Assembly: GCA_964448645.1 (NCBI GenBank)
Contig: CAYUZY010000001.1
Span: 1-46,673 of the forward strand
Source: an uncultured Flavobacteriaceae bacterium
GTDB lineage: Bacteria > Bacteroidota > Bacteroidia > Flavobacteriales > Flavobacteriaceae
Length of the DNA: 46,673 nucleotides
Reading direction: 5' to 3'
The notes below the pieces were generated by a model. The model was not told where the DNA came from. It did no database searches and saw nothing but the letters and a program-made list of their open reading frames with translations. Positions 1 through 46,673 of the stretch are shown one piece after another (the first letter of the stretch is position 1; each line of letters starts with the position of its first letter). The translations under genes were made by a program, and so were the position numbers.

Positions 1-4
1 TCGG

Positions 5-78
5 TGGTCCCACCTGGGCTCGAACCAGGGACCAACTGATTATGAGTCAGCTACTCTAACCAACTGAGCTATAGGACC
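5..78 (-). tRNA. tRNA with anticodon CAT, elongator type; probably tRNA-Ile2 (lysidine-modified) rather than tRNA-Met
   Basis: The reverse complement folds as a cloverleaf. Acceptor is GGTCCTA/TGGGACC, D arm GCTC..GAGT, anticodon stem GCTGA/TCAGT with loop CTCATAA (anticodon CAT), T arm CCTGG-TTCGAGC-CCAGG, discriminator A. The CCA end is not fully encoded. There is no C1:A72 mismatch and no GGG/CCC anticodon stem, so it is not an initiator. C4-G69, C5-G68 and G27:T43 match E. coli tRNA-Ile2. Confidence 0.88.
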
Positions 79-17475: not shown

Positions 17476-17928
17476 TTACGAAAAATACATAGCGCAATGA
17501 GGAATTCCGTCTTCTAAATAATTCTCTCCTTTAAAGACAAAGCCGCAATTTTCATAAAATTTTTGCAAATGTTTTTGTGCTGATATTTTAATTGTTTTTC
17601 CTGCATACTTTTCTTTACAAACTTCTATTAGTTTTTTTACTAATTTATATCCTAATTTTTTTTCTCTATCTTTTTTTCTAATAACAATTCTTGTAATTGA
17701 AGTATAGCTTTTATAGTAATCATTAGGTTTTAATATTCTCCCATATGCTATACAATTATGACCCTCGTCTAAAGAATATATATGTGTTGCTTTTTTGTCT
17801 TTTTCATCAATATCTAAATACGCGCATTTTTGTTCTAAAACAAATACTTCCGATCTAAGTTTTAAAATTGAATATAAAATATTAGCATCTAATTGATTGA
17901 AGTTTTTTATATTCCAAATTATTGACAT
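17476..17928 (-). CDS. GNAT family N-acetyltransferase (ElaA-like)
   Basis: 150 aa. LRSEVFVLEQKCAYLDIDEKD and the acetyl-CoA site region RKKDREKKLGYKL. Confidence 0.8.
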   Translation of the reverse strand: MSIIWNIKNFNQLDANILYSILKLRSEVFVLEQKCAYLDIDEKDKKATHIYSLDEGHNCIAYGRILKPNDYYKSYTSITRIVIRKKDREKKLGYKLVKKLIEVCKEKYAGKTIKISAQKHLQKFYENCGFVFKGENYLEDGIPHCAMYFS

Positions 17929-22009: not shown

Positions 22010-23671
22010 ATGAAAAAAGGGATAAATTTTATAGAGCAGATTGTTAAACAAGATCTATTAAGCGGTTTTAATAAAAAAAACTTAAAATTTAGATTTCCTC
22101 CTGAACCAAATGGGTTTTTACATATTGGACACGTAAAAGCGATATGTTTGAATTTTAATCTTGGAAAAAAGTATGGGGCACCTGTAAATCTTCGGTTTGA
22201 CGACACTAACCCTGTTAAAGAAGATAAAAAATTTGTGGATGCAATAAAAAAAGATATTTCGTGGTTAGGATATAAGTGGGAAAAAGAATGTTATGCATCT
22301 GATTATTTTGAGCAGTTATATAAATGGGCACATTATCTAATTGAAAACAATTTAGCATATATTGATTCTCAAAACTCAGAACAAATAGCCTTACAAAAAG
22401 GAACGCCTACAAAATCAGGAACAAACAGTCCATACAGGAATAGAAGTGTAAAAGAAAATAAAGATTTATTTACAGGAATGTTTAAAGGGGAGTTTAAGGA
22501 AGGAGAACATGTCTTAAGAGCTAAAATTGATATGGCATCATCAAATATGCTTTTAAGAGATCCAGTAATTTATAGGGTTCTTTATCAAGAACATCATAGA
22601 ACAAAAAATCTGTGGTGTATATATCCTTTATATGACTGGACCCATGGCCAATCTGATTATATTGAGCAAATTTCACATTCGCTTTGCACTCTAGAATTTA
22701 AACCTCATAGAGACTTATATGACTGGTTTCTAGATTCAATATCTCCTTTAAAAAAATTAAGACCAAAACAAAGAGAATTCGCTAGATTAAACCTTTCATA
22801 TACGGTAACCTCAAAAAGAAAATTATTTGAATTAATTGAAAAGAAATATGTTAATGGATGGGATGATCCAAGAATGCCAACGATTTCTGGTTTAAGAAAA
22901 AGAGGTTATACGCCAGAGTCTTTAAGAAAATTTGTAGAATTAGCAGGGGTATCAAAAAGAGAAAACTTAATAGACCTTTCTCTTCTGGAATTTTCAGCTA
23001 GAGAACATCTTAATTTAGTTTCCCCAAGGGTAATGGCTGTATTAAACCCCGTTAGATTAATTATAAAAAATTATCCTGAGAATCAGGATGAAATTTTAGA
23101 GGGAGAGATTAATCCTGAAAAGCCAGAACTTGGAAAAAGAAAAATGCCTTTTTCAAAAGAACTTTATATTGAAAAAGAAGATTTTAAAGAAGAGGCCAAC
23201 AGAAAATTTTATAGACTTTCAATAGGAAAAGAGGTTAGGTTAAAAAATGCTTATATAATAAAAGGAGAGACTGTAGTAAAAAATAATGATGGAACAATTA
23301 AAGAAATTATATGTTCATATGATCCTAAAAGTAAAAGCGGAAGTGGATCTGAAGAAAGCAAAAGAAAAGTTAAAGGAACAATTCATTGGGTTACAGTTAA
23401 ACATTCTTTAAATGCAGATGTTAATGTTTATGATAGGCTTTTTATGGTCCCTTCTCCAGATCAGAATAAAGAAATTGATTTTAAAGAGTTTATTAACCCT
23501 AATTCATTAAAAACTGTTAATGGTTTCGTCGAACCAAGTTTATCTATGGCTTTAAAAGGAAATCATTTTCAATTTCAAAGATTAGGGTATTTTATTTTAG
23601 ATGAAATTAATAATGAAAAATTAATTTTTAATAAAACGGTAGGATTAAGAGATAATTGGTCTAAGAAATAA
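22010..23671 (+). CDS. glnS: glutamine--tRNA ligase
   Basis: Class I motifs HIGH (FLHIGHVKA) and KMSKS-like (VTSKRK), with GlnRS-type length and C-terminal beta-barrels. Confidence 0.93.
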   Translation: MKKGINFIEQIVKQDLLSGFNKKNLKFRFPPEPNGFLHIGHVKAICLNFNLGKKYGAPVNLRFDDTNPVKEDKKFVDAIKKDISWLGYKWEKECYASDYFEQLYKWAHYLIENNLAYIDSQNSEQIALQKGTPTKSGTNSPYRNRSVKENKDLFTGMFKGEFKEGEHVLRAKIDMASSNMLLRDPVIYRVLYQEHHRTKNLWCIYPLYDWTHGQSDYIEQISHSLCTLEFKPHRDLYDWFLDSISPLKKLRPKQREFARLNLSYTVTSKRKLFELIEKKYVNGWDDPRMPTISGLRKRGYTPESLRKFVELAGVSKRENLIDLSLLEFSAREHLNLVSPRVMAVLNPVRLIIKNYPENQDEILEGEINPEKPELGKRKMPFSKELYIEKEDFKEEANRKFYRLSIGKEVRLKNAYIIKGETVVKNNDGTIKEIICSYDPKSKSGSGSEESKRKVKGTIHWVTVKHSLNADVNVYDRLFMVPSPDQNKEIDFKEFINPNSLKTVNGFVEPSLSMALKGNHFQFQRLGYFILDEINNEKLIFNKTVGLRDNWSKK

Positions 23672-26187: not shown

Positions 26188-26619
26188 ATCATAATTATTA
26201 CAATAAACGACATACCAGCTATTATTGATTTAAAAAAGATAAAACTTTTAATTATAAACTTTGTTTTTAATGAAGGGTATGAGGTAAAAAAAATTGATTA
26301 CAACTTTGTTTCAAAAACTAAAATTTTAAAAATTAATTCTAAATATTTAAATCATAAATCAGAAACAGATATTTTAACATTTGATTATTCAACATCAAAA
26401 AAAATCGAAGCAGAAATTTATTTGTGTTATTCAGTTATCAAAAAACACGCAAAGGAAAACAGACAAAGGGTTGAAAATGAGCTAGTTAGAGTCATGATAC
26501 ATGGTGTTTTACATTGTATGGGTTATAATGATAAAGTAGATAATGAAAAAATGTTGATGGCGGAGAAAGAGGATCTTTTTTTAAAAATGTTCCACGTGAA
26601 ACATTATAATCATGTTTGA
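26188..26619 (+). CDS. ybeY: rRNA maturation RNase YbeY; no canonical start codon (ATC/ATA/ATT start inferred)
   Basis: The frame is open from 26149. It translates to ...IIIITINDIPAIIDL...IDYNFVSKTKILKINSKYLNHKSETDILTFDY...HGVLHCMGYND, a full-length YbeY of about 143 aa. The track ORF (TTG 26422) keeps only the last 65 aa. There is no ATG/GTG/TTG between 26149 and 26422. Confidence 0.75.
   Translation: MIIITINDIPAIIDLKKIKLLIINFVFNEGYEVKKIDYNFVSKTKILKINSKYLNHKSETDILTFDYSTSKKIEAEIYLCYSVIKKHAKENRQRVENELVRVMIHGVLHCMGYNDKVDNEKMLMAEKEDLFLKMFHVKHYNHV
26586..26603 (+). repeat. copy A of an 18-nt motif, AATGTTCCACGTGAAACA (inside the ybeY 3' end, 8 nt before the mnmG ATG)
   Basis: 17 of 18 positions are identical to 28486-28503. 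The offset is exactly 1900 nt. Confidence 0.8.
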
Positions 26620-31752: not shown

Positions 31753-32709
31753 TTGAAGTTTAAAATTATAATTATAGCTTTTTTAATTTTTTCTTGTAAT
31801 AAAAGAAAGAATCAAGTGTATATTCCAGAATCTAATGGAAGAATAAATGATGTAATGATAGTTATGAATAAGAATGATTGGGAAAATTCTTTAGGAAAAA
31901 CAATAAGAGAAGGATTAAGTCAGCCATATGAAGGCCTTCCAACTGATGAGCCAAAGTTTAACTTATTTTATTTAAATCCAAAGGCATTTTCTGGATTTAC
32001 AAAAAAAAGCAGAAATATTTTATGGTTTGTAAATAGTGATTTAAATGAATTTAAATTGATGGAAAATCCATTTTCTAAACCTCAAATTGTTGTTAAAAGT
32101 GCTTTTGAGGATAATGATTTACATAAATTTTATTTTAAAGAAAATGTTAATCTGATAATAAATTTAATTTTTAATAATGAGAGAAAAGAAAAATTAAGAC
32201 GAATTAATAAATCTTTATCTAGATCTAAAGATTTAGAAAATCGATTTGGAATTAAATTAAAATACCCCTCTGCATATAAAACAGTTAAGGATACTTCTAA
32301 TTTTATATGGATTCAAAAAGACATTCAAAAAGGGCATATGAATATTATCTCATATTCTATTCCAATAAAAGATTTTAACTCTTTTAATAGTAAAAGAATT
32401 GTTAGTATTAGGGATTCAATTGGAGAATTATATATTCCAGGAAGATTGAAAGAATCATATATGATTACTGAAAAAGCGTATAAACCATTCTTTTATAAAT
32501 CAAAAAAAGAAACTAAAACTTTATATATAACAAAAGGAACTTGGGAAGTTTATAATGATTTTATGGCTGGACCATTTATTAATTTTTTTATTGAAGATAT
32601 TAATAATAAGAGATGGATTGTTATTGAAGGTTTTGCTTTTGCTCCTTCAACTAAAAAGAGAGATTATATGTTTGAACTAGAGACTATTTTGAATACAATA
32701 AAATTCTGA
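31753..32709 (+). CDS. DUF4837-like lipoprotein (Bacteroidota-specific, function unknown)
   Basis: TTG start, signal peptide and lipobox (LIFSCN), 318 aa. The DUF4837 assignment is from memory of the N-terminal GRINDVMIVMNKNDWENSLG pattern. Confidence 0.6.
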   Translation: MKFKIIIIAFLIFSCNKRKNQVYIPESNGRINDVMIVMNKNDWENSLGKTIREGLSQPYEGLPTDEPKFNLFYLNPKAFSGFTKKSRNILWFVNSDLNEFKLMENPFSKPQIVVKSAFEDNDLHKFYFKENVNLIINLIFNNERKEKLRRINKSLSRSKDLENRFGIKLKYPSAYKTVKDTSNFIWIQKDIQKGHMNIISYSIPIKDFNSFNSKRIVSIRDSIGELYIPGRLKESYMITEKAYKPFFYKSKKETKTLYITKGTWEVYNDFMAGPFINFFIEDINNKRWIVIEGFAFAPSTKKRDYMFELETILNTIKF

Positions 32710-32717
32710 AAAAAGGA

Positions 32718-32885
32718 TTATTGGTTTTTTTCATCAATTTTTTTTTCTTCATTATCTTCTTTAGTTGCTTTTTTAAACTCTTTAATTCCGCTTCCTAAGC
32801 CTTTCATTAGTTCAGGAATTTTTCTTCCTCCAAATAGTAAAAGCACTACGGCAATTATAAGAATAATTTGTGGGGCTCCAATCAT
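32718..32885 (-). CDS. tatA: twin-arginine translocase TatA/TatE family subunit (55 aa); absent from the supplied ORF track
   Basis: The reverse complement translates to [55 protein letters not shown]. This is the canonical TatA TM helix, FGG hinge and amphipathic helix. Confidence 0.9.
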
Positions 32886-32921
32886 AACTATATTTAAATT
32901 AATTTTAATTAATTCTTATAA

Positions 32922-32929
32922 CAAATTTA
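32922..32929 (-). promoter_or_regulatory. -7 promoter box (TAAATTTG) for tatA
   Basis: Reverse complement of 32922-32929 is TAAATTTG. There are 36 nt to ATG 32885. Confidence 0.35.
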
Positions 32930-32993
32930 CTCAAATATTTTAGTTATTCTATATCATTTAATATAATTGATATTTTATACTTTGAGTAATCCT

Positions 32994-33001
32994 TATATTT
33001 G
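32994..33001 (+). promoter_or_regulatory. -7 promoter box (TATATTTG) for the M23 peptidase/GH3/GT operon
   Basis: TATATTTG with 8 nt to ATG 33010, giving a very short leader. Confidence 0.45.
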
Positions 33002-33009
33002 AATACAAT

Positions 33010-33882
33010 ATGTCAAAAAAAAATAAATCATCAAATAAGATAATAAAAAAATTGACTAGCCACTATCGTATGTTGGTAGTGAATGAGGAAACATTTGAAG
33101 AACAATTCCAGTTTAGGTTATCAAGATTAAACGTTATTATATTTTCAGTTTTTATATTTTCAATTTTTAGTATTGGGTTATTTTTTATAATTGCATATTC
33201 ACCAATAAGAGAGTATATACCTGGTTATGATTCAAGTGAGATTAGAAAAAATGCTATAGAAAACTTATTTATTACAGATTCTCTAATTAATATTTATCAG
33301 AAAAACGCTCGTTATTTAAAATCGGTTAAAAAGGTTCTAACTGGAAAGAATCTGGATGAATCTTTTTTTAAAAATATTGATTTAGAGAAAGATTCATTAG
33401 GTGAAAAATTTAATAAAGTAATAAAAGGAAATAAAGCGGATTCGATTTTAAGAAAAGTAGTTGACCAAGAGGACAAATATAATTTTGATCAAAAATCTAT
33501 CTTAAATTCAAATGTATTTTTAAATGCTCCTGCAAAAGGTCCAATCTCACAAAAATTTAATATCAAAGAAGAACATTTTGCTGTTGATATAGTACTGGAA
33601 GAAAATTTTCCAGTTAAATCTATAGCTGATGGAACTGTAATTTTTTCAGAATGGACAGCACAGACTGGCTATGTAATAATCGTTAGACATAATTATGGCT
33701 TTATGTCGGTATATAAGCACAATTCTAGTTTAAGTAAAAAACAAGGAGAGTTTGTTTTAGCTGGAGAAGTTATTGCTGCTGCTGGAAATACAGGGGAGTA
33801 TTCTACTGGATGGCATTTGCATTTTGAATTATGGCTTGAAGGATATCCAATAGATCCTGAAGAATTTTTTAATTTTGATTAA
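33010..33882 (+). CDS. M23 family metallopeptidase, membrane-anchored
   Basis: N-terminal TM helix and a C-terminal LytM domain with HFAVD...NTGEYSTGWHLHFEL. Confidence 0.88.
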   Translation: MSKKNKSSNKIIKKLTSHYRMLVVNEETFEEQFQFRLSRLNVIIFSVFIFSIFSIGLFFIIAYSPIREYIPGYDSSEIRKNAIENLFITDSLINIYQKNARYLKSVKKVLTGKNLDESFFKNIDLEKDSLGEKFNKVIKGNKADSILRKVVDQEDKYNFDQKSILNSNVFLNAPAKGPISQKFNIKEEHFAVDIVLEENFPVKSIADGTVIFSEWTAQTGYVIIVRHNYGFMSVYKHNSSLSKKQGEFVLAGEVIAAAGNTGEYSTGWHLHFELWLEGYPIDPEEFFNFD

Positions 33883-33888
33883 AATATA

Positions 33889-35391
33889 ATGAAAGGTTTT
33901 TTAGCTAAACTTTTTTCAAAGTATATATATTATAAGAATAAGGGTTGGAGAAAAAATCCAATAAAATATCAAAATTTAATTTTTAAGGAATTAATAAAAA
34001 AAGGATTAAAGACTAGATTTGGAATAGACAATGATTTTAAAAACATAAAATCATATGATGATTTTGTTAGAAAAGTTAAAGTTAGGGATTATGAAGACAT
34101 CAAAATATATATAAAAAAAATATTAGCTGGCGAAAAAAATATTTTATGGCCTGGAAAACCATTGTATTTTGCAAAAACTAGTGGAACAACTTCTGGGATT
34201 AAATATATTCCTATAACAAATGATTCAATAAAAACTCACATTAATTCTGCAAGAGACTCTATATTAAATTACATTCATAAAAGTGGTAATACTAAAATAG
34301 CTTATGGGAAACATATATTTATTCAGGGATCTCCTATTTTAAAAACTATAAATGGAATTTTGTTAGGTAGACTTTCTGGCATAGCTGCTCATTACGTTCC
34401 AAAGTATATGTTAAAAAACAGAATGCCTAGTTGGGACACAAATTGTATTAAAGATTGGGAAAAAAAGGTAGAAGTAATAGTTAAAGAGACATTAGATAAG
34501 GATATGACTATAATTGCAGGAATTCCTTCTTGGGTTCAAATGTATTTTGAAAAAATTTTAACTGAATCAAATAAAAATATAGGGGATCAATTTCCAAATT
34601 TTAGCCTTTTTGTATATGGAGGAGTAAACTTTGAACCATATAAACCTATTTTTGATAATTTAATTGGAAGACATGTTGATACTGTTGAAGTTTATCCTGC
34701 TTCCGAAGGATTTATTGCATATCAAGATCAATTAAACGATACAAGTCTATTATTATTAGTTAATAATGGAATTTTTTATGAATTTATTGAAGCATCAAAG
34801 TTTTACGATAAATACCCCAAAAGATATAACTTAAATCAGGTAAAAAAAGGAATAAATTATGTAATAATTCTTTCTACAAATGCTGGTCTTTGGGCCTATA
34901 ATATTGGAGATACAATTGAATTTACTTCATTAAATCCATATAGAATTAAAGTAACAGGAAGAATTAGTCATTTTATTTCAGCTTTTGGAGAGCATGTAAT
35001 AGGATCTGAAATAGAGAAAGCCATAGGTGTTGGGTTAAAAAAACATAAGACTGAAGTTTTTGTTAGAGAATTTACAGTTGCACCTAAAATTGATTCTAAA
35101 AGAGGTTTTTCTTATCATAAGTGGTTTATTGAATTTGATAGAATTCCACCAGACTTAAAATCTTTAGAGAAGGATATAGATATTTCTCTTCAAGATCAAA
35201 ATATATATTATAAAGATTTGATAAAAGGCAAAATATTAAGAAGATTGGTTATTAAAGCGGTTGAAAAAAACAGCTTTTCAAAATATATGAAAAAGGAAGG
35301 AAAATTAGGAGGTCAAAATAAAGTTCCCAAATTATCAAATGACTATAAAATTGCAAGTTTTTTAGAAAAATATGTTATAAATAAGGATTAG
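33889..35391 (+). CDS. GH3 family (acyl-adenylate-forming, auxin-responsive-promoter-like) protein
   Basis: 500 aa. FAKTSGTTSGIKYIP and YGGVNFEPYK are typical of the bacterial GH3 family seen in Bacteroidota. Confidence 0.8.
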   Translation: MKGFLAKLFSKYIYYKNKGWRKNPIKYQNLIFKELIKKGLKTRFGIDNDFKNIKSYDDFVRKVKVRDYEDIKIYIKKILAGEKNILWPGKPLYFAKTSGTTSGIKYIPITNDSIKTHINSARDSILNYIHKSGNTKIAYGKHIFIQGSPILKTINGILLGRLSGIAAHYVPKYMLKNRMPSWDTNCIKDWEKKVEVIVKETLDKDMTIIAGIPSWVQMYFEKILTESNKNIGDQFPNFSLFVYGGVNFEPYKPIFDNLIGRHVDTVEVYPASEGFIAYQDQLNDTSLLLLVNNGIFYEFIEASKFYDKYPKRYNLNQVKKGINYVIILSTNAGLWAYNIGDTIEFTSLNPYRIKVTGRISHFISAFGEHVIGSEIEKAIGVGLKKHKTEVFVREFTVAPKIDSKRGFSYHKWFIEFDRIPPDLKSLEKDIDISLQDQNIYYKDLIKGKILRRLVIKAVEKNSFSKYMKKEGKLGGQNKVPKLSNDYKIASFLEKYVINKD

Positions 35392-35394
35392 TTT

Positions 35395-36453
35395 ATGTCG
35401 AGATTTAAGGTGACATTTGTTTATAGTGTTCTTAATCCTTTTGTTAAAAAGGATATAAAAATTTTAAAAAACCTTGGTGTTTCATTAAGTCAAATTAAAT
35501 CTCCTCCTAATAAAGATTTTTTTAATTTTTTAAGAAATAGATTTAAAGAGTTGTATAAATCTATTTTATTTATTCCTAAATCTCAAGTAGTTATTTGTTG
35601 GTTTTGTGATTATCATGCTTTAATTCCTTTAATACTATCAAGACTATTTAAAAAAAGATTTGTTGTAATAGTTGGAGGATATGATGCTATATCATATAAA
35701 GAATTAAATTATGGAGTTTTTCAAAAAAAAAATATAAGAAGTAAAATAGCTTCTATAATTTATCATTCTGCTTCAGAAATATGGGCCGTTCATAAAAGTC
35801 TTATATATGGTTGTAAAAACTCAAAAAAGGGATTAAATATTGATTCAGGGATAAAATCGTTTTTAAAAAATCTTAAAACCGAAATTAAAGAAGTTCCAAC
35901 TGGTTATGATTTCTCTTTTTGGAAATCTAAAAATAAACGAAGGAATAAAAACACCATTCTTACAGTAGCTAATATTGATAATTATCAGACTTTTAAAAGA
36001 AAAGGATTACCTCAATTTATTGATTTAGCAAAAAAGCTCAATAATTTTAGCTTTACAATTGTAGGTTTCTCAAAAAAAATGATTTTAGAAATTGATAAAC
36101 CAAAAAATGTAACTTTAATTGGAAAACTTAATTCAAATCAGTTAGTTAAATTATACTCTAAAAATTATTATTATTATCAGGGCTCTATAATTGAAGGTCT
36201 TCCTAATGTTTTATGTGAAGCTATGTTATGTGAGTGCATACCAATAGGGAACAATGTTTTCGGAATTTCTGATGCTATTGGTAATACGGGTTTTATTTTT
36301 AAGGGGTTTAAAGAAATGGATAAAGTAAAAGATTTTTTAGAATCAAAGATTGTTTTGAATGGAAAAAATGCTAGAGAAAGAATAAAGACTAAATACCCTT
36401 TGTCTAAAAGAGTTTATAGATTTAATAATTTATTAAGTGAAACAGAATTATAA
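35395..36453 (+). CDS. glycosyltransferase family 4 (GT-B, retaining)
   Basis: C-terminal EGLPNVLCEAMLCECIPIG (E-x7-E region). 352 aa. Confidence 0.8.
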   Translation: MSRFKVTFVYSVLNPFVKKDIKILKNLGVSLSQIKSPPNKDFFNFLRNRFKELYKSILFIPKSQVVICWFCDYHALIPLILSRLFKKRFVVIVGGYDAISYKELNYGVFQKKNIRSKIASIIYHSASEIWAVHKSLIYGCKNSKKGLNIDSGIKSFLKNLKTEIKEVPTGYDFSFWKSKNKRRNKNTILTVANIDNYQTFKRKGLPQFIDLAKKLNNFSFTIVGFSKKMILEIDKPKNVTLIGKLNSNQLVKLYSKNYYYYQGSIIEGLPNVLCEAMLCECIPIGNNVFGISDAIGNTGFIFKGFKEMDKVKDFLESKIVLNGKNARERIKTKYPLSKRVYRFNNLLSETEL

Positions 36454-37402
36454 AACAGCTGTAATTTCTTATCCTAATTCTAATAATTTAGGAGATTATA
36501 TTCAAAAAATAGCTGTTAAGCAATTTTTAAAGGAAAATATAAATGAAATTGATCGGGACAATTTAAAAAATTATTTTGGAGAAAAAATTAAGCTAATTAT
36601 TAATGGTTGGTTTATGGAAAAACCCAAGAATTGGCCTCCATCAGAAAGTATTATTCCTTTATTTATTTCTTTTCATATAAATCCTATAATAAAGTCATAT
36701 ATTTTAAATAAAAAGGGAGTTGAATATTTAAAGCAACATGAACCTATTGGTTGTAGAGATTTATATACCAAGTTAATTCTTGATAAAAAGGGAATAAGAG
36801 CATACTTTTCGGGTTGTCTTACACTAACTTTAGATAGAAAAAAATTAAAAATTAAAAATAATTTCAAAAAAGGGATATTAGTAATTAACTTAATTGATAG
36901 AATATTGCCTAAATTTTTATTTTTAAAAAGCCCATCTATTAGAAACCTTTTTAAAGATAGTATTCAACTCATTAAGTATCCTTATAAGAAAATTATTTAT
37001 GTTATTTCAAAAAGAAGAATTAATTTTTTTTTAGATAATCAAAAAAAAGAGATTAAGTTTCTATCTCAAATAATAGATGCTAATGATACAAGTGTTTTAA
37101 AAAGAGAGAAATTAGCATATGAACAATTGTATGCAATTGCTAATTCTGAGCTTGTATTAACCTCAAGAATACATTCTGCACTTCCTTCAGTGGCTCTAGA
37201 AGTACCAACTATTTTTATTTCAGATGGACTTGATCATATTAATCAAAAAAGCAGATTAGCAGGATTAGATAAATTTATTACTATTATAAAATCTAAAGAG
37301 CTTAATAAAATATCTATTGAAAAAATTAAATTGAACAATCATAAAACTTTTGTTGAAAAAATGAAAACTAAAATCACAAATTTTATTAATTATAAACAAT
37401 AG
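36437..37402 (+). CDS. polysaccharide pyruvyl transferase family protein
   Basis: GTG start overlapping the GT4 end by 17 nt. N-terminal NLGDYIQ, IGCRD and TSRIHSALPSVALEVPTIFI motifs. Confidence 0.75.
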   Translation: MKQNYKTAVISYPNSNNLGDYIQKIAVKQFLKENINEIDRDNLKNYFGEKIKLIINGWFMEKPKNWPPSESIIPLFISFHINPIIKSYILNKKGVEYLKQHEPIGCRDLYTKLILDKKGIRAYFSGCLTLTLDRKKLKIKNNFKKGILVINLIDRILPKFLFLKSPSIRNLFKDSIQLIKYPYKKIIYVISKRRINFFLDNQKKEIKFLSQIIDANDTSVLKREKLAYEQLYAIANSELVLTSRIHSALPSVALEVPTIFISDGLDHINQKSRLAGLDKFITIIKSKELNKISIEKIKLNNHKTFVEKMKTKITNFINYKQ

Positions 37403-37445
37403 AATTATTAGCTTCACATTATCATAATTATTTTACTTTTAGTAT

Positions 37446-38717
37446 ATGAATATATTGGTTTTAGGTGGAGGGGGAAGAGAAAATGCTTTTTGTTGGAAAT
37501 TATCAAAAAGTAAATTAGTAAATAAAATTTTTGCTGCACCTGGAAATGCAGGCACAGAACTTTATGCTGAAAATTATAATATTTCTGTTAATGATTTTAA
37601 AAAGATTAAGTCTTTAGTCATAGATAAAAAAATTAAAATGGTTCTAGTAGGGCCAGAAGAACCTCTTGTTAGAGGCATTCATGATTTTTTTTTAAATGAT
37701 GATTTTCTTAAAGACGTACATTTAATTGGTCCTCAAAAACAAGGAGCACTTTTGGAAGGGAGTAAATCATTTGCAAAAGAATTTATGAAAAGAAATAATA
37801 TTCCTACAGCAAAATATTTAAAAGTCAATGAGAATAATATTGATGAAGGAAATCTTTTTCTAGAGAATTTATTTCCTCCCTATGTTTTAAAAGCAGATGG
37901 ACTTGCAGCTGGCAAAGGGGTCTTAATTATAAATAATTTGGATGAAGCTAAAATAGAATTAAAAAGAATGTTAATTGATCAAAAATTTGGCGAAGCATCA
38001 AAAAATGTTGTAATAGAGGAGTTTCTTGATGGCATTGAATTATCTTGTTTTGTTCTTACTGATGGAAAAAATTATATAACCCTTCCCATGGCAAAAGATT
38101 ATAAAAAAATAGGAGAAGGTGATATTGGATTGAATACTGGGGGAATGGGAGCTATTTCTCCAGTTCCTTTTGTTTCAAAAGTATTTAAGAATAAAATTGA
38201 TAAAGAAATTATAAAACGAACTATTAAAGGATTTAATAAGGAAAAAATACCTTTTAGAGGGTTTCTTTTTATTGGTTTAATTAAGGTTAAAGACAAGCCA
38301 AAAGTTATAGAATATAATGTTAGAATGGGAGATCCTGAAACGGAGGTAGTTTTACCAAGAATTAAAAATGATTTTGGAGAAATATTAACCTCTCTTGTTA
38401 CAAATAAATTAAAATTTGTTAAAATGGAGTTTTTTAATGATTCTGCGGCTACTATAGTTTCTGTATCTCAAGGATATCCTGGAAAATATGAAAAAGGTAA
38501 AGAAATAAAGGGTCTTGATAAAAACACTGAAAGTATTATATTTCATTGTGGAACAATAAAAAGCTCAAAAAAGGTTTTAACTAGTGGAGGAAGAGTTTTA
38601 GCTGTGACCTCTTTTGGAAAAGATTTTAAATTAGCGTTATCTAAATCTTATTCATTTCTAAAAAACATTAAGTATGAAGGTATTTACTATAGAAAGGATA
38701 TAGGTTTTGATTTGTAA
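37446..38717 (+). CDS. purD: phosphoribosylamine--glycine ligase
   Basis: MNILVLGGGGRENA, ATP-grasp core, NVRMGDPETEV and TSGGRVLAV motifs. 423 aa. Confidence 0.96.
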   Translation: MNILVLGGGGRENAFCWKLSKSKLVNKIFAAPGNAGTELYAENYNISVNDFKKIKSLVIDKKIKMVLVGPEEPLVRGIHDFFLNDDFLKDVHLIGPQKQGALLEGSKSFAKEFMKRNNIPTAKYLKVNENNIDEGNLFLENLFPPYVLKADGLAAGKGVLIINNLDEAKIELKRMLIDQKFGEASKNVVIEEFLDGIELSCFVLTDGKNYITLPMAKDYKKIGEGDIGLNTGGMGAISPVPFVSKVFKNKIDKEIIKRTIKGFNKEKIPFRGFLFIGLIKVKDKPKVIEYNVRMGDPETEVVLPRIKNDFGEILTSLVTNKLKFVKMEFFNDSAATIVSVSQGYPGKYEKGKEIKGLDKNTESIIFHCGTIKSSKKVLTSGGRVLAVTSFGKDFKLALSKSYSFLKNIKYEGIYYRKDIGFDL

Positions 38718-38745
38718 GATTTTTATAAATTTTCTATTTTTTTAA

Positions 38746-39681
38746 ATGATAGCTGAAGTTTTTCAAAAAACAACTTTAAAATCATACTTTGCCAGTATTA
38801 TTTTAAGTTTTCTGACGATTATTTTTATTCATTATTGTAAAAATAATGGAACTATAAGTATAGACCTTTTTCCTAAAATAATTATTTTTTGGATTTTATT
38901 TTCAGGAATAATTTTTTTAATTGGTTATTTAGAAAACAAAAACGCTGTAAATACTTTTAGGGCGATTCATTTATTATCTTTTCCCTTATTATATTTGTTC
39001 TTTCCACATGGAAAAGAATTAGTTTTTTCTAAAGTTTTAATTGCTGTTCTTATAATTTTTTCAAAATATAGTTATAGTAGAATTTTTAATGAAAATAAAT
39101 CTTATCTACGCTTATTTGATTTGTCTTTTATAATAGTCTTGTTGATTTTATACAATAAATATTTTAGTCTATTTTTGATTATACCAATAACAGTGCTTTT
39201 TTATCAAAAAAATAGAGATTTAAAACATTTAGTTTCGTTTTTGATTCCATTAATATCTTTGCCTCTAGTTACAGAAATTTTTTATAAAGTATTTTTTTAT
39301 GATAATAATTTTTTTTTAAATTTTAATTATTTGATAAATACATGGAAAATTCAAGAAAATCATTATTATTCAGAAGTTGTTTGGTTTTTCTCAATTTTTA
39401 TTGCGATTCTTTCAAGTATTTTATTTATGCCTAGAAGATTTGAAAAAATTAAATATCAAGGCTTTATTTTTATGATGTTTTGGCTTTATATAGCTATAAT
39501 TATGGGACTTTTTGATCTACATAAAGGAGACGGAAAGTGGTTTTTAAGTTTTATTCCTGTTGCATATTTTTGTGGAATATTTATTGAAAAAATAAAATTA
39601 ATTAAAATTAAAAATATGATAATTTATTTATTGTTTTTTATTGGTGTTATTTTTAAATTGATTGAAAATAATATTATATAG
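38746..39681 (+). CDS. integral membrane protein, about 8-9 TM helices, function unknown
   Basis: 311 aa, highly hydrophobic and Phe/Ile-rich, with no catalytic motif recognised. It sits upstream of DUF4254 and GT9. Confidence 0.6.
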   Translation: MIAEVFQKTTLKSYFASIILSFLTIIFIHYCKNNGTISIDLFPKIIIFWILFSGIIFLIGYLENKNAVNTFRAIHLLSFPLLYLFFPHGKELVFSKVLIAVLIIFSKYSYSRIFNENKSYLRLFDLSFIIVLLILYNKYFSLFLIIPITVLFYQKNRDLKHLVSFLIPLISLPLVTEIFYKVFFYDNNFFLNFNYLINTWKIQENHYYSEVVWFFSIFIAILSSILFMPRRFEKIKYQGFIFMMFWLYIAIIMGLFDLHKGDGKWFLSFIPVAYFCGIFIEKIKLIKIKNMIIYLLFFIGVIFKLIENNII

Positions 39682-39690
39682 TTTAAGTAA

Positions 39691-40299
39691 ATGAAATATT
39701 TAAGTAATAAAGCTTTAAAGATTTTTAGAGAATCAGTTGATAAATATCATATAATTAATAAAGTTGATCAAAAATTTAATAATCCATATAGTGATAAAAG
39801 TTTATCTAATTTATTATATAAAAAAAACTGGATTGATACTGTTCAATGGCATCTAGAGGATATAATTAGGGATCCTTCAATTGATTCAAAAAAAGGGATG
39901 GAGATAAAAAGAAAAATTGATTTATCAAATCAAAAAAGAACAGATTTGGTAGAATATATTGATGACTATTTTTTAAATGTATTTAAAAAGATAAAAATTA
40001 AGAAAAATGCAACTTATAATTCAGAAACATTGGCATGGGCTTTAGATAGACTTTCTATTTTAGTTTTAAAAATATATCATATGAATGAAGAAGTGGAAAG
40101 AGATGAGGCATCTATTGAACATAAAGAAAAATGTAAGAATAAATTAGAAATATTAAATCTTCAAAAAGAAGATTTGTCAAAGGCTATTGATCAATTAATT
40201 TTTGATATTCAAAAAGGAATAAAATACATTAAAGTATATAAACAAATGAAAATGTATAATGATATTTCTCTTAATCCAATACTATATAAAAAAAAGTAG
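39691..40299 (+). CDS. DUF4254-like protein (function unknown, usually paired with a GT9 gene in Bacteroidota)
   Basis: 202 aa, soluble. The NWIDTVQWHLEDIIRDP motif and the pairing with the downstream GT9 match my memory of DUF4254. Confidence 0.6.
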   Translation: MKYLSNKALKIFRESVDKYHIINKVDQKFNNPYSDKSLSNLLYKKNWIDTVQWHLEDIIRDPSIDSKKGMEIKRKIDLSNQKRTDLVEYIDDYFLNVFKKIKIKKNATYNSETLAWALDRLSILVLKIYHMNEEVERDEASIEHKEKCKNKLEILNLQKEDLSKAIDQLIFDIQKGIKYIKVYKQMKMYNDISLNPILYKKK

Positions 40300-40311
40300 T
40301 TTTAAATTTAA

Positions 40312-41364
40312 ATGAAAAAAAATGAGAATATATTAGTTATTCGCTTTTCATCACTTGGAGACATTGCAATAATGGTTCCCCTTTTTAGAGTTCTTTTTAA
40401 AACTTATCCAAATCTTAATGTTACAATATTATCAAATAAAAAAACAGCTCCTGTTTTTTATGAATTTAAAAGACTAAAATTTTTTAATGTTGATTTTAAT
40501 AATAAACATAAAGGATTAATTGGTTTATGGGATCTATTTAAAGAGTTAAGAGTTTTGAATATTAACTGTATTGCTGATTTACATGCTGTAATTCGTTCAT
40601 ATATAATCGGCGGGTTCTTTAAATTTAATTTTTTTAAATTAAAAAGAATTAATAAAGGAAGAAGAGAAAAAAATGCCTTAACTAGACAAAAAAATAAAGT
40701 TTTTAAACCATTAACATCTACTTTATACAGATATTCTGATGTTTTTGGAAAATTAGGTTATCCAGTTGATTTTGTTAATCATGAATTTCCTGACAGACTA
40801 TCTATGCCAGAAAAATTAATTGACAAATATGATCAAAAAGAAAAATCTTTTATTGGTATTGCACCATTTGCTGCTCATGTTGGAAAAATTTATCCTCTTG
40901 ATTTAATGCAAAAGGTTATTGGTTATCTTGAAAAAGATTATAAAATTTTTCTTTTTGGTTTTGGTAAAAACCAAACAGCTAAATTAAATTTATGGGAAAA
41001 TGCTTTTTCAAATGTATACAATTGTTCAGAGAGACTTAATCTATCAGATCAGATCAAATTGATTTCGAATTTAAGTTTAATGATTTCAATGGATTCATTT
41101 AATGGTCATTTAGCTGCTAATGCAGGAATACCCGTGATAACTATATGGGGCATGACTCATCCTTTTTTGGGGTTTTCTCCTTTTTTACAGTCTGATTTAA
41201 ATCAAATAGTAATAGATAGAAATAAATTTAATTTAATTCCTACCTCAGTTTATGGAAATAAAATTCCGAAAGGATATGAAAACGTATTTAGGTCTATCTC
41301 TCCTTTAACTATTATAGAAAGAGCAAATAAAATATTAAATACTAAACATCATCAAAATCAATAA
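40312..41364 (+). CDS. glycosyltransferase family 9 (heptosyltransferase-like)
   Basis: NILVIRFSSLGDIAIMVP N-terminus and C-terminal MDSFNGHLAANAGIPVITIWG, typical of GT9. Confidence 0.85.
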   Translation: MKKNENILVIRFSSLGDIAIMVPLFRVLFKTYPNLNVTILSNKKTAPVFYEFKRLKFFNVDFNNKHKGLIGLWDLFKELRVLNINCIADLHAVIRSYIIGGFFKFNFFKLKRINKGRREKNALTRQKNKVFKPLTSTLYRYSDVFGKLGYPVDFVNHEFPDRLSMPEKLIDKYDQKEKSFIGIAPFAAHVGKIYPLDLMQKVIGYLEKDYKIFLFGFGKNQTAKLNLWENAFSNVYNCSERLNLSDQIKLISNLSLMISMDSFNGHLAANAGIPVITIWGMTHPFLGFSPFLQSDLNQIVIDRNKFNLIPTSVYGNKIPKGYENVFRSISPLTIIERANKILNTKHHQNQ

Positions 41365-42373
41365 CAATATTTTTTGACTTAGGAATAGATTGACATGTTA
41401 ATATTAATCCTTCTTTAATTTCTTGATCAGTTAATATTTGATTAGTTTTCATTTCTATTTCCCCTTTTTTAATTCTTGCAATACAAGAAGAGCAAATACC
41501 GCCTTGGCAAGAATAAGGGACATCAATATTATTATTCAAAATAGAATCTAACAGTATTTCAGAGGATTTAAAATTAATTTTATAAGAAGAACTATCATAA
41601 ATTATTTCTATCTGGCCTTCATTTAAAGAAGAAGATGTTATTTTAGAAACTTTATTTTCAAATAGTTCGGAAAAGATTTGTTCTGGATTTACCGTATTAT
41701 TAATTAGAATTTTTTTTAAAAATTCATTCATATTACCAGGGCCACATAAGTAATATAAATTATTTGAATATTGATTTGATATTACTTTAATTATATCAGA
41801 TTCATTAACTCTTCTGTTTTGAGAATTTTGAATTTTTACTTCAGTAAAAAACCAACTTATTTCAAATCTTTTTTTGTTTTTAAATTGTAATGATTTTAAT
41901 AATTCAAAGAACATTGTTTTCTCAGGAGATTTATTAACATATATTAAATGAATTTTATTTGAGTTTTTTTTGTCGAGAATAGATTTGATTATAGAAAGAA
42001 TAGGTGTAATTCCACTACCAGCAGCAATTGCAATTATTGAACTATTATATTTTTTTTTATATACAAATTTTCCTTCAGGATTTGAAACTCTTATATAATC
42101 TCCAGCTTTTAAGTTTTTATTTGCATAAGTTGAAAAAAGCCCTCCTTTAACTTTTTTTATTCCCACTTTTAAGAGATTCTCATCTGGTGATGAGCATATT
42201 GAATATGGTCTCCTTATAATTTTACCATTAATTTTCTTTTCTAGTGTAATATATTGACCTGGTTCAAAACAAAAAGTGTTTTTTAAATTTTCGGGAATTT
42301 CGAATGATAGAATGACTGAATCCGAAGTATTTTTTACAATGGATAGAATTTTCAAATCATTTAAAATGTTCAT
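41342..42373 (-). CDS. ferredoxin-NADP reductase-type flavoprotein fused to a plant-type 2Fe-2S ferredoxin domain (PaaE/PaaK-like)
   Basis: RPYSICS FAD motif, AAGSGITP NAD(P) motif and C-terminal CQGGICSSC...LTC cluster. I moved the start to ATG 42373 because TTG 42382 is the end of a -7 box. Confidence 0.85.
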   Translation of the reverse strand: MNILNDLKILSIVKNTSDSVILSFEIPENLKNTFCFEPGQYITLEKKINGKIIRRPYSICSSPDENLLKVGIKKVKGGLFSTYANKNLKAGDYIRVSNPEGKFVYKKKYNSSIIAIAAGSGITPILSIIKSILDKKNSNKIHLIYVNKSPEKTMFFELLKSLQFKNKKRFEISWFFTEVKIQNSQNRRVNESDIIKVISNQYSNNLYYLCGPGNMNEFLKKILINNTVNPEQIFSELFENKVSKITSSSLNEGQIEIIYDSSSYKINFKSSEILLDSILNNNIDVPYSCQGGICSSCIARIKKGEIEMKTNQILTDQEIKEGLILTCQSIPKSKNIVIDFDDV

Positions 42374-42379
42374 TAAAAG

Positions 42380-42387
42380 CAAAAATA
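42380..42387 (-). promoter_or_regulatory. -7 promoter box (TATTTTTG) abutting the reductase start; leaderless candidate
   Basis: Reverse complement of 42380-42387 is TATTTTTG. There are 6 nt to ATG 42373. Confidence 0.45.
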
Positions 42388-42459
42388 ATAATAATAGAAT
42401 TTTTAACTATAAAACATACTAAAAAAGACCTTTTTTAGTTATTAGGGTAAAGAATTAAA

Positions 42460-44910
42460 TTGCAGAATAAGACATCTTTATTATTAGTATTTTTTATTTT
42501 AATTTCTTGTTCAACTTCAAAAGACAGGTTTTTAAACAGAAAATACCATAAAGTAACTACAAAGTATAATGTTTTGTATAATGGAAAAGAGGCTTTTAAA
42601 ATTGGCAAAAAGATTTTAGAAGATGTATATGAGGATGATTTTTTTAATTTAATTTCTGTTGAACCAATTTTTTTAAGAGGTGAAAATATTGACAATTCAA
42701 CAATTATTCCAGGATTTCAAAGAGCTGAAGAAAAAGCTGTTAAATCAATTCAGAAACATTCAATGAATATAAAGGGCTACCAAAAAAATCCGTTGATAGA
42801 TGATTCATATATTCTTTTAGGCAAGGCAAGATATTTTGACAGAAGGTTTTTTCAGGCTTTAGAATCTTTTAATTACATAATGGAAAATTACTCTAATCCA
42901 AAAACTTATCTTGAAGCTAGAATCTGGAGAGAAAAGACAAATATAAGATTGAATAATAATGAATTGGCAATAAATAATCTTAGAGGAATATCCGAAAAAT
43001 TGATAAATAAAAGTAGTTTTTCTGGAATGTTAAATGCTTCATTAGCTCAAGCTTTTCTAAATAATAAAAGATTAGATTCGGCAAAATTTTTTATTAAAAA
43101 AGCAGCTATTAATGAAAAAAGTTTTAATTATAAATCAAGGTATTTTTTTATTACAGGACAACTTTTTGAAAAACTAAATAAAAAAGATTCTGCAATTTGG
43201 GCTTACAATAAGATCAAATTAATGAAAAGAAAAATTTCAAGAAAATTTTATATTAATTCTATATTAAAGCTTTTTATTTTAGATGAAAATGAAATTTTAG
43301 AAAATAAAAAAAATAAGATTAAAAGAGAACTAAAAAATTTTCAAAATCGTGAATTTAAACATTATTTATATTCAGGTTTAGCAAAAATTTTAAATAAAAA
43401 TGGACAGGACTCTTTGGCAAATAGATATTATTTGTTGTCTCAAAACTCTTCAAACATAGACATTTATACTAAAATTAATAATTATAACTCTATAATAGAT
43501 TACAATTTCAATAAAGGAGATTTTATTAATACGGGAAAATATATAGACAGTTTGATTGAACTATATAATCCAGAAGAAATAGAAAGAAAAATATTAAAAA
43601 GAAGAAAAGAAAGCTTATCTGATGTAATTAGATATGAAAAGATCATTAATGAAACAGATAGCATAATAAAATTGATTAAAATGAATCCTGAAGATAGATT
43701 TTCTTTTTTTTCATCATTAATTAAAGAAAGAAAAGAAAACGAGTTAGATTCTTTACAAAAGATTAAAAACAAAAAGAAGATTGGTTTTTTAAATTTTACT
43801 GATAAAAACAAATTTTATTTTTATAATTCTAATTTAATTCTTGCTGGGCAACAAAAATTTAGATCATTTTGGGGAAATAGACCCAATATAGATAATTGGA
43901 GAGTGATAAGTGATATTGCATCTTTAAAAACATATGGGAAAAAGATTAATAAAATTTTAAAAGAAAATAAAATAGCTTATGACACACCGGAATATTTAAT
44001 TTCTACTATTCCAACAAATAAAATTAAAATAGATAGTATAAATCAAATTAATGAAAATTCTTATCTGCAATTAGGCCTTATCTATAAACAAAGGTTTGAA
44101 AAGAATTTATTAGCAAGTGAAAGATTAGAAACCTTACTTAAAAAAACCCCATCGTCTAAGATTAAAGTTCAGGCACTATATCATTTATATAAAATTTATC
44201 AAAACAAAAATGATTCTTTAGAAAATTATTATAAGAGTATAATAGTTAATGAGTTTTCCAATACACCTTTTGCAATTTTATTAATAGATTCAAAGAATTA
44301 TAAGAATTTAGAAAAGGAAACCGTTGAAGGTTTATATAATAATTTATATCAGATGTATACTCAAGGAGAATATTTAGATTTATTGATAAAGATAAATCAA
44401 ATTAGCGCATTTATTAGTGGAACAAAATTTGAACCTAAACTTTCTCTTTTAAAAGCAAATGTTATTGGAAGAATATATGGAGTTTCTAGGTGGAAAAAAG
44501 AATTAGAAGTATTATCATTAAGTTATCCTGAATCAATTGAAGGAAAGTTTTCAAAAAAATTATTATTGAAGATTTCTAGTTCAAATGATTTAAAGGAAAA
44601 AAAAGTAAGTTATAAAAACTATAAATGGATTTTTGTTTTTAATAATAATGAAATTGATAGATTAAATATTTTTTATTCTAAAATAAAAAAAGTTTTAATT
44701 GATTCAAAAGTTGGATGGACTTTAAGTAAAGACTTTTATAATATTGAAAACTCTTTAATTGTAATTCATGGAATAAAAGATAAAAAGGAAAAAGATAAAT
44801 GGATAGCTGATTGGGTGGAAGAAACTAAATTTGTGTTAGAATCAAATAATTTTGTAGCTTTAGCGTCCGATTACAGAAATTGGATGAAAAATAAGATTTC
44901 TTTAAAATAA
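42460..44910 (+). CDS. large TPR-containing lipoprotein, probable type IX secretion component PorW/SprE
   Basis: TTG start and lipobox (LISCS). The N-terminal RFLNRKYHKVTTKYNVLYNGKEAF pattern is what I recall for SprE/PorW. 816 aa, TPR-like helical repeats, positioned upstream of bactofilin, atpZ and atpB. Confidence 0.65.
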   Translation: MQNKTSLLLVFFILISCSTSKDRFLNRKYHKVTTKYNVLYNGKEAFKIGKKILEDVYEDDFFNLISVEPIFLRGENIDNSTIIPGFQRAEEKAVKSIQKHSMNIKGYQKNPLIDDSYILLGKARYFDRRFFQALESFNYIMENYSNPKTYLEARIWREKTNIRLNNNELAINNLRGISEKLINKSSFSGMLNASLAQAFLNNKRLDSAKFFIKKAAINEKSFNYKSRYFFITGQLFEKLNKKDSAIWAYNKIKLMKRKISRKFYINSILKLFILDENEILENKKNKIKRELKNFQNREFKHYLYSGLAKILNKNGQDSLANRYYLLSQNSSNIDIYTKINNYNSIIDYNFNKGDFINTGKYIDSLIELYNPEEIERKILKRRKESLSDVIRYEKIINETDSIIKLIKMNPEDRFSFFSSLIKERKENELDSLQKIKNKKKIGFLNFTDKNKFYFYNSNLILAGQQKFRSFWGNRPNIDNWRVISDIASLKTYGKKINKILKENKIAYDTPEYLISTIPTNKIKIDSINQINENSYLQLGLIYKQRFEKNLLASERLETLLKKTPSSKIKVQALYHLYKIYQNKNDSLENYYKSIIVNEFSNTPFAILLIDSKNYKNLEKETVEGLYNNLYQMYTQGEYLDLLIKINQISAFISGTKFEPKLSLLKANVIGRIYGVSRWKKELEVLSLSYPESIEGKFSKKLLLKISSSNDLKEKKVSYKNYKWIFVFNNNEIDRLNIFYSKIKKVLIDSKVGWTLSKDFYNIENSLIVIHGIKDKKEKDKWIADWVEETKFVLESNNFVALASDYRNWMKNKISLK

Positions 44911-44921
44911 AAATTTATCAA

Positions 44922-45299
44922 ATGAATGATACAAATGGTCAATATAGTAGAATAGAAAAAGCAACAAGTGTCAATGGAAATATTATTTCAGAAACTGATC
45001 TTAGGATTGATGGTGTAATGGAGGGTACAGTTACTACAAAAGGGAAAATCATTATTGGCAAAGAAGCCAAAGTAAAGGGTGTTTTAAATTGTCAAAATGT
45101 TGAGATTGAAGGGTTTTTTAATGGCAATATTAATGTAATTGATAGTTTAAATTTAAAATCCACGTGTCAAATAGAAGGAGAGGTTAAGGTTGGAAAGTTA
45201 ATTGTTGAAGCCGGAGCTATTTTTAATGCAACTTGTTCTATGAGTAATGATTATGAGGGGGTAAAAACTTTAACAGAAAACCATGAAAAAACAGCCTAA
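44922..45299 (+). CDS. bactofilin family polymer-forming protein
   Basis: 125 aa with repeating beta-helix pattern (DLRIDGVMEGTV, KVKGVLNCQNVEIEG, QIEGEVKVGKLIVEAG). Confidence 0.85.
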   Translation: MNDTNGQYSRIEKATSVNGNIISETDLRIDGVMEGTVTTKGKIIIGKEAKVKGVLNCQNVEIEGFFNGNINVIDSLNLKSTCQIEGEVKVGKLIVEAGAIFNATCSMSNDYEGVKTLTENHEKTA

Positions 45300-45486
45300 T
45301 AAATGGTTAGTTTTTTCTTCTCTTTTTTTCCAGATTGCTATTATAATGTATGTTTTCATTAATATCGGGTCTTTTATTGACTCAAAATATAGCCCACATC
45401 AAAATTTTTATTCTTTAATTTTTTCTGCATTAGGAATAGTATTAATTTTATTTTTGATTTCAAATCAATCAAAAAGATTAAAATAG
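45283..45486 (+). CDS. AtpZ/AtpI family small membrane protein
   Basis: 67 aa with two TM helices. KQPNKWLVFSSLFFQIAIIM is typical, and the gene precedes the ATP synthase operon. Confidence 0.75.
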   Translation: MKKQPNKWLVFSSLFFQIAIIMYVFINIGSFIDSKYSPHQNFYSLIFSALGIVLILFLISNQSKRLK

Positions 45487-45849
45487 TTGATGTTAAAAGG
45501 TTTGCTGCCAGTCTCAATAAATTTGTTAATTATAATGGGAGTTACATTTATAATTCACATTTCTATAAGCTACAATTTTCAACCTAATTTTCTTTTAATT
45601 CAAAGTTATTTAATAAATACTTTTCTGGTTTTTATAAGTTTTTGGTTGTTACGGATTTTACATAAAAAAATAAACATCATTATTACTTATTTATCAACTA
45701 TTATAATTAAAGTTTCAGTATATTTTATTTTTTTTTATCCAATTTTTTATCAAGATACAGTTTTAAATAAAAAAGAATTTATGATTTTTTTTATACCTTA
45801 TTTTGCGGGATTAATTTCTGAAATATTTTCTTTTAAAAAAATATTTTAA
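45487..45849 (+). CDS. small 4-TM membrane protein of unknown function in the atp leader region
   Basis: 120 aa and hydrophobic. The start is TTG 45487 or the adjacent ATG 45490. Confidence 0.6.
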   Translation: MMLKGLLPVSINLLIIMGVTFIIHISISYNFQPNFLLIQSYLINTFLVFISFWLLRILHKKINIIITYLSTIIIKVSVYFIFFYPIFYQDTVLNKKEFMIFFIPYFAGLISEIFSFKKIF

Positions 45850-45917
45850 GTATAGAATTAGTTAAAAAAATTAAATAAAAAATTGTAACAATCATTTTAT
45901 TTTTTAACCTAATGCAT

Positions 45918-45925
45918 TACATTTG
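45918..45925 (+). promoter_or_regulatory. -7 promoter box (TACATTTG) for atpB
   Basis: TACATTTG with 24 nt to ATG 45950. Confidence 0.45.
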
Positions 45926-45949
45926 CGTTTTTCAACACAAATTGTATAA

Positions 45950-46363
45950 ATGACTGTGGTCAGAAGTAGATTTTTTATTTTTATTTTATTAATTATTAGT
46001 CATTTTGATGTTTATTCTAATGGATTAGAAAAAGACATTCAAGAGCTAGAAAAAGAAATAAAAGAGTATATAAATCATCACGTATTAGATTCACATGATT
46101 TTAATTTATTGAGCTATACTAGAGAAGATGGTTCCAAATTTTATTTTGGAATTCCCCTTCCTGTTATTTTATGGGATGAAGGATTAGTGATATTTTCTTC
46201 ATATAAATTTAATCATGGTGAAACTATAGCAAAATCAGGGACTAATTATTATAAGCTTTACCATGGCAATATATATAAAACTGATTCTTCTGGAAAAATA
46301 TATTATGATAAAGATAACCATGTTCAGAATAATTCTCCGCTTGATTTTTCTATTACAAAATGA
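45950..46363 (+). CDS. atpB: F0F1 ATP synthase subunit a, N-terminal (signal-anchor plus periplasmic) segment, ending at an in-frame TGA
   Basis: HHVLDSHDF...GIPLPVILWDEGLVIFSS...PLDFSITK matches the Bacteroidota-specific N-terminal extension of AtpB. The TGA is at 46361-46363. Confidence 0.8.
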   Translation: MTVVRSRFFIFILLIISHFDVYSNGLEKDIQELEKEIKEYINHHVLDSHDFNLLSYTREDGSKFYFGIPLPVILWDEGLVIFSSYKFNHGETIAKSGTNYYKLYHGNIYKTDSSGKIYYDKDNHVQNNSPLDFSITK

Positions 46364-46673
46364 GTTGTAAGAATAATATTTGTATCAATTATAATGTTTT
46401 TATTATTTAGAAATTTGGCTAATTCTTATAAAAAAAATGGAATGATGGCAAAAGGCATTGGAAGATTTTTTGAACCAATAGTTTTATATGTTAGAGATGA
46501 AATAGCTATTCCAAACATAGGGCAAAAACATTATAAAAGATATATGAGTTTTTTATTAACGTTGTTTTTCTTTATTTGGATTTGTAACATGATTGGATTG
46601 ACCCCATTTGGAATTAATGTAACAGGGAATATTGCGGTTACATTTTGTTTAGCTTTATTGACTTTTATTATAA
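46364..46673 (+). CDS. atpB: F0F1 ATP synthase subunit a, membrane core, in the same frame directly after the TGA; truncated by the window end
   Basis: Translation gives VVRIIFVSIIMFLLFRNLANSYKKNGMMAKGIGRFFEPIVLYVRDEIAIPNIGQKHYKRYMSFLLTLFFFIWICNMIGLTPFGINVTGNIAVT. This corresponds to TM helix 1 through helix 3 of subunit a. The first in-frame ATG is at 46394. Confidence 0.8.

Follow-up and report, generated by a model that had tools for sequence, protein, structure and literature searches.

An in-frame TGA in a flavobacterial atpB opens the divergent last 313 bp of its contig and is most probably an assembly artefact

Subunit a of the Bacteroidota ATP synthase (AtpB) joins an N-terminal extension specific to this phylum, DUF8433 (PF28541 in the precomputed annotations of AtpB homologues), to the universal membrane core ATP-synt_A (PF00119). 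An in-frame UGA within such a conserved gene calls to mind the known recoding systems, in which UGA is read as selenocysteine, as Trp (translation table 4) or as Gly (translation table 25); UGA is also the leakiest of the stop codons. A further described system concerns the ends of metagenomic contigs. Assemblers keep non-unique sequence at scaffold ends and halt where strains vary, and an ORF put together from strains that differ by microvariation may be a chimera (Chen et al., 2020, Genome Res, PMC7111523).

The stretch of DNA analysed here (the window) coincides from end to end with one NCBI contig (46,673 bp), and its last gene, atpB, can be compared with each of these systems. Like other Bacteroidota AtpB, the window copy matches AtpB profiles in both of its halves, and the same operon order is seen in contigs of the same strain; unlike them, it has TGA at codon 138, Arg at codon 141 and Phe at codon 220, and it ends at codon 241. 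With the recoding systems it shares an in-frame UGA in a conserved gene and, with table 25 in particular, the residue replaced, since Gly is that table's meaning for UGA. It departs from them in that UGA serves as a normal stop in six other genes of the window, no SECIS-like structure accompanies it, the codon is GGA elsewhere in the strain, and the host belongs to the Flavobacteriaceae, which is not a lineage known for recoding. With chimeric contig ends it has in common that the anomaly occupies the last 313 bp of the contig, that it begins exactly where the contig leaves all other assemblies of the strain, that several assemblies break in the same conserved gene, and that other contigs carry equivalent tails; it differs from them in that no donor of the window tail was found in the collections searched. 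We favour, with a probability of about 0.85, the reading that the TGA belongs to non-representative sequence at the contig end, an assembly artefact, and not to the organism's atpB. The features concerned are the following, in window coordinates.

45950..46360, + strand: atpB codons 1-137, with a signal-like N-terminus and the Bacteroidota-specific extension; 0 mismatches to same-strain contigs L024 or L025
46361..46363, + strand: in-frame TGA at codon 138, which is GGA (Gly) in the 7 same-strain contigs covering it and in all sister lineages; opens the divergent tail
46364..46673, + strand: atpB codons 139-241, from TM helix 1 onward, ATP-synt_A (PF00119, NF009953); truncated by the contig end
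46361..46673, no strand: the last 313 bp of the contig, which diverge from the same-strain consensus by 11 substitutions
46361..46378, + strand: variant cluster A, comprising G138* (GGA>TGA), S141R (AGC>AGA) and a synonymous change at I143 (ATT>ATA)
46588..46636, + strand: variant cluster B, comprising 8 third-position substitutions in 49 bp, 7 of them synonymous and the other L220F

The initial annotation of this DNA had claimed that an in-frame TGA splits atpB just ahead of TM helix 1, and the profile matches bear this out. The frame opens at ATG 45950 on the + strand, reads ...PLDFSITK, meets the TGA at 46361-46363, and past it stays open as VVRIIFVSIIMFLLF... up to the last base of the window. 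When the two halves are joined, one NCBIfam AtpB profile runs through both of them, TGA included (NF009953; residues 34-241 against profile positions 70-216, E 4e-30), while the downstream piece alone matches Pfam ATP-synt_A (PF00119, E 2e-22). For the intact AtpB of the same strain the match to PF00119 has an E value of 3e-55, and ATP-synt_A starts at residue 140, which places codon 138 two residues ahead of that domain, at the junction of the N-terminal extension and the membrane core. The first in-frame ATG, GTG or TTG after the TGA is the ATG at 46394, by which point TM helix 1 has run for 10 residues. Judged as a member of the AtpB family, the window copy has the profile matches and the location in the atp operon, and what it lacks is a single uninterrupted frame; the window fragment is identical to the intact same-strain protein at 238 of 241 residues.

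Contigs of the same strain were found in ENA/SPIRE, JGI and Logan metagenome assemblies by exact identity to proteins encoded in the window (PurD, an 816-aa protein, a 119-aa protein, the product of the first gene, an M1 peptidase and GidA). At 46361, seven of seven contigs (L024/L027, L025, L028, L029, L030, L031 and L032) read G, giving GGA, and they come from seven different assemblies: ERZ23498633, SRR8062339, ERZ23498581, JGI 3300009104, 3300009126, 3300008629 and ERZ23498701. The whole uninterrupted gene is present in L024, L025 and L030. Translation of L024 and L025 yields an intact AtpB of 357 aa, a protein recorded from JGI, Logan and ENA, and downstream of atpB both contigs carry atpE, atpF and atpH, followed in L024 by atpA and atpG, for an operon order of atpI-like, atpB, atpE, atpF, atpH, atpA, atpG. 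The real atpB of this strain has GGA (Gly138) and encodes an ordinary, single 357-aa subunit a in a standard atp operon. It had been proposed beforehand that finding a sense codon at 46361-46363 would expose the TGA as an assembly error, and such a codon is indeed what is read there, in independent assemblies as opposed to raw reads of the source assembly. Among the four explanations that the initial annotation had listed, the one that we favour is accordingly its first, an assembly or sequencing error, given that seven assemblies read GGA and that three of these hold the gene entire.

Upstream of the TGA, window and same-strain contigs agree closely. No base differs between the window and L024 or L025 over the 13,901 bp from 32460 to 46360. 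Longer comparisons took in 45,315 window bases against scaffold_510 of ERZ23498633 (84 kb) and 42,336 against Ga0117902_1001264 of JGI 3300009104 (47 kb); over the ~45 kb compared with scaffold_510, a single base substitution lies outside the tail, at 17662. At this position, within an acetyltransferase gene on the minus strand (17476-17928), the window has T and six loci from four other same-strain contigs have G, with codon 89 going from GAC (Asp) to GAA (Glu). Either a real SNP or an error may lie behind the difference.

All the other substitutions, 11 of 12, fall within the last 313 bp, the first of them being the T of the TGA, which stands 313 bp from the 3' end of the contig. Substitutions thus occur at 1 per 28 bp in the tail, as opposed to 1 per 45 kb outside it, and under a uniform model clustering of this kind has a P of about 2e-24. 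Because the TGA opens this aberrant tail and seven other assemblies of the strain read a sense codon there, it is almost certainly an assembly artefact. No divergent tail is seen at the 5' end of the contig, where window and same-strain contigs agree at every base from the first onward.

The composition of the tail is informative as to its origin. Ten of the 11 differences are third-position changes (P = 1.3e-4 for random placement) and eight are synonymous, which argues that the tail is mostly a natural variant or foreign allele, moulded by selection, and not noise. Transitions and transversions stand at 4 to 7, against about 31 to 10 for close-strain divergence in atpB, and this excess of transversions is not what an allele from a close strain would show by itself; nor, with such a bias toward third positions, is the tail what random error alone would give. 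The three non-synonymous changes strike residues common to all homologues aligned or read, apart from codon 138 in two distant ones (see below); at L220F, for example, Leu is kept in 20 of 20 aligned homologues. Nine of the 11 tail states are absent from all 25 other loci that align there, and those found elsewhere among these loci are only the states at 46630 and 46636. In an exact-pattern scan of JGI metagenome contigs, the cluster A pattern, with the first base of codon 138 left free, was not found, and neither was the cluster B pattern over five sites at 46588-46609, with the L220F base (46609) left free.

Breaks and aberrant ends of this sort recur in assemblies from the same population. 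Four other same-strain contigs end inside atpB, L029 at window position 46476, L028 at 46569, and both L031 and L032 at 46616. The last 86 bp of L028 (window 46484-46564) hold 13 substitutions, several of which match a clade of 85% identity (L002) when compared by eye, and the last 60 bp of a further contig, L047 (window 23594-23645), hold 13 substitutions together with indels. L028 and L047 thus give two independent cases of a chimeric contig end within the population. Internal errors are seen as well, in scaffold_510 (L041, L045, L049), where a deletion of ~40 bp at about window 2412-2451 splits sdhA into 214 and 397 aa and ~100 extra bases at about window 23120-23132 split glnS into 438 and 41 aa; the window and the JGI contig have unbroken copies of both genes. 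With the L028 and L047 tails and the indels of scaffold_510 in hand, non-representative ends and local errors are demonstrably common in the assemblies of this population. In the case of the window, three marks of such an artefact are present, namely an anomaly near a contig end, a mismatch confined to the terminal stretch, and a recurrent break point with similar tails elsewhere. A tRNA-Met (CAT) gene (window 3-78, minus strand) is cut by the start of the contig, as atpB is by its end, so that both contig ends lie in conserved sequence shared by multiple strains.

The homologues tell the same story for codon 138. Each of the ~140 that we examined has a sense codon at the site, and none has a TGA or separate genes there. 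The best 120 are long proteins that run across the site, nearly all of 321-391 aa, the closest being 96% identical; among GTDB species representatives the closest relatives reach <=85% identity (MAG SP3040 and SAG AG-390-P11). In an alignment of 20 homologues all close relatives have Gly at codon 138 and two distant ones have Asn, with neither Cys nor Sec at the homologous residue in any of them. At the DNA level the codon is GGA in five close relatives, from which the window differs by a single G>T. The 137-aa product of the window, which has no entry in the gene-position index but is recorded from one NCBI contig of 46,673 bp, exactly the length of the window, belongs to a 90%-identity cluster of 30 sequences; among the 15 members listed it is the sole truncated one besides a 298-aa fragment, and the 13 members read at the sequence level all have Gly at codon 138. 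The expectation of the initial annotation that orthologues would carry a sense codon here was therefore right, but its choice of Asn or Ser holds only in part, close relatives having Gly (GGA) and distant ones Asn. Its proposed alignment of the two pieces to AtpB homologues shows that both are halves of one AtpB, which is a single gene in all relatives examined, and its proposed search for TGA at the same codon in relatives returned none, GGA being present in all sister lineages.

Two other substitutions in the window copy might be taken for further damage to atpB. At S86Y (window 46203) Tyr86 replaces a Ser kept by all other homologues aligned or read, and at E192Q (window 46523) Gln192 replaces the Glu usual in AtpB. 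Both are common to all same-strain assemblies, L024 among them, and are rejected as damage; they are fixed, strain-specific substitutions. Long-term pseudogenisation of atpB is likewise rejected. In polarised counts taken over the last 10.7 kb of the window, the figures for atpB are 4 N to 15 S on the window branch, compared with 3 N to 8 S on the sister branch, and most of the changes counted as private to the window branch turned out to be common to the whole strain.

A tail with these properties could arise as follows. The marine Flavobacteriaceae population would coexist with close strains that share a nearly identical, highly conserved atpB; the assembly graph would then presumably branch within this gene, and contigs would stop there. 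The window contig would have run for 313 bp along a minor or foreign branch, probably one of low coverage, and then ended. Such a branch would bring with it the 11 differences, most of them third-position and mostly synonymous, as in a natural variant allele, while the G>T that makes the TGA may be either an uncorrected read error in the thin tail or a private mutation of the rare variant. How the 11 differences divide between true variants and errors is something that we infer.

The same assembly pattern would be given by a real recombinant minor allele bearing a genuine nonsense mutation, and this is the alternative that calls for the closest comparison with an artefactual contig end. Here a minor strain would have a short recombined tract in atpB and, at codon 138, a genuine and recent G>T nonsense change. 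In that subpopulation or single lineage atpB would be null or strongly hypomorphic, and the allele would be either on the point of being purged or kept alive by the basal leakiness of UGA. The natural-sequence signature of the tail, with its bias toward third positions and synonymous changes, suits a real allele, which would likewise make the assembly branch and stop; so do S141R and L220F, damaging-looking changes at sites where all other sequences in the 21-sequence alignment agree, as lost function would allow. On the other hand, the TGA is seen in one assembly only, against GGA in seven others of the same strain, and neither variant cluster turns up in the JGI metagenome contigs even with 46361 left free. 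Eight synonymous as against three damaging changes are unlike a decaying pseudogene, and a contig that ends 313 bp on, with the stop as its very first variant base, is more simply explained as a thin tip of the graph. We regard such an allele as unlikely. The nonsense mutation in an essential gene that the initial annotation had entertained is thus at most a rare private allele, seen in one assembly, and not a property of the lineage.

Far less probable still are the explanations in which the window sequence is taken as functional. Were the UGA at codon 138 decoded, by read-through, as selenocysteine, or as Gly or Trp, a full-length subunit a would result. The leakiness of UGA lends this some plausibility, as does the ancestral Gly at the site, for UGA=Gly exists (table 25) and would restore the wild-type protein; this match to table 25, however, is coincidental, GGA>TGA being a change of one base. 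Seven same-strain assemblies have GGA at the codon, such that the TGA is not conserved even inside the strain, which refutes recoding as a feature of the lineage, and the homologous residue is never Cys or Sec. Nor does the rest of the window speak for recoding. Its 41 tabulated ORFs end with 25 TAA, 9 TAG and 7 TGA (atpB included), Trp has 150 TGG codons, and, atpB apart, no two long ORFs in one frame are parted by a TGA as the halves of a split gene would be. The one other such candidate, 31753-32709 followed by 78 open codons, is rejected, as tatA on the opposite strand explains it. Between 46350 and 46450 the predicted RNA structure is unexceptional (MFE -11.8 kcal/mol, where shuffled sequences average -11.3; z = -0.18), and a search for an Rfam recoding element or SECIS gave only a spurious, below-threshold lncRNA match. 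With six other ORFs ending in TGA, 150 TGG codons and no other in-frame TGA, we reject global or local UGA recoding. The initial annotation was correct in its view that global recoding is no explanation, TGA being a stop for those six ORFs and TGG the codon for Trp; its option of site-specific read-through finds no support, GGA being present in the same strain and TGA in no relative, and the scan that it advised for other genes with an in-frame TGA came back empty within the window. We consider decoding of this UGA extremely improbable. Equally hard to credit is a genuinely split atpB, in which a secreted 137-aa N-terminal domain would be followed by a separately initiated membrane core. The stop does fall at the boundary of the Bacteroidota-specific extension and the universal ATP-synt_A, the place at which one would look for a viable split. 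Against this, two genes are found in none of the homologues examined, nor in any same-strain contig; no canonical in-frame start precedes ATG 46394 inside TM helix 1, and there is no ribosome-binding-site spacer; and the split state is confined to one contig tail. Reinitiation at a split atpB, as the initial annotation had suggested, is therefore unsupported, the same strain having an intact gene and no relative having separate ones. Taken more broadly, the notion that the tail is genuine and that a rare strain with a recombined atpB tract and a true UGA at Gly138 makes a functional subunit a, whether by read-through or as two polypeptides that part at the boundary of extension and core, strikes us as barely conceivable; if it were true, the N-terminal extension of Bacteroidota AtpB would be a separable module.

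On the favoured reading of an artefactual contig end, the TGA in atpB is not a real biological feature. Were it real, a free-living marine flavobacterium would carry a null allele of a near-essential gene, and nothing supports that. The lesson is one of quality control, in that the appearance of an essential gene split by a stop codon dissolves once other, independent assemblies of the strain are set beside the contig. Disrupted conserved genes that lie within a few hundred bases of the end of a MAG-type contig are best presumed artefacts pending read checks. Pseudogene or recoding calls made at such ends would overstate how often genes decay or are decoded in an alternative way.

Some neighbouring genes deserve separate mention. 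Upstream of gidA, at about window 26200-26619 on the + strand, the ybeY frame is open for ~160 codons, of which gene callers give 65 aa. No ATG, GTG or TTG occurs early enough for a full-length YbeY, and its start may be non-canonical. Between the bactofilin gene and atpB (window 45283-45849, + strand) lie two small membrane-protein genes that are conserved in all relatives. The 67-aa gene upstream of atpB has a faint ATPase_gene1/AtpZ-like match and the 119-aa gene has no family match; the two are probably accessory genes of the atp operon.
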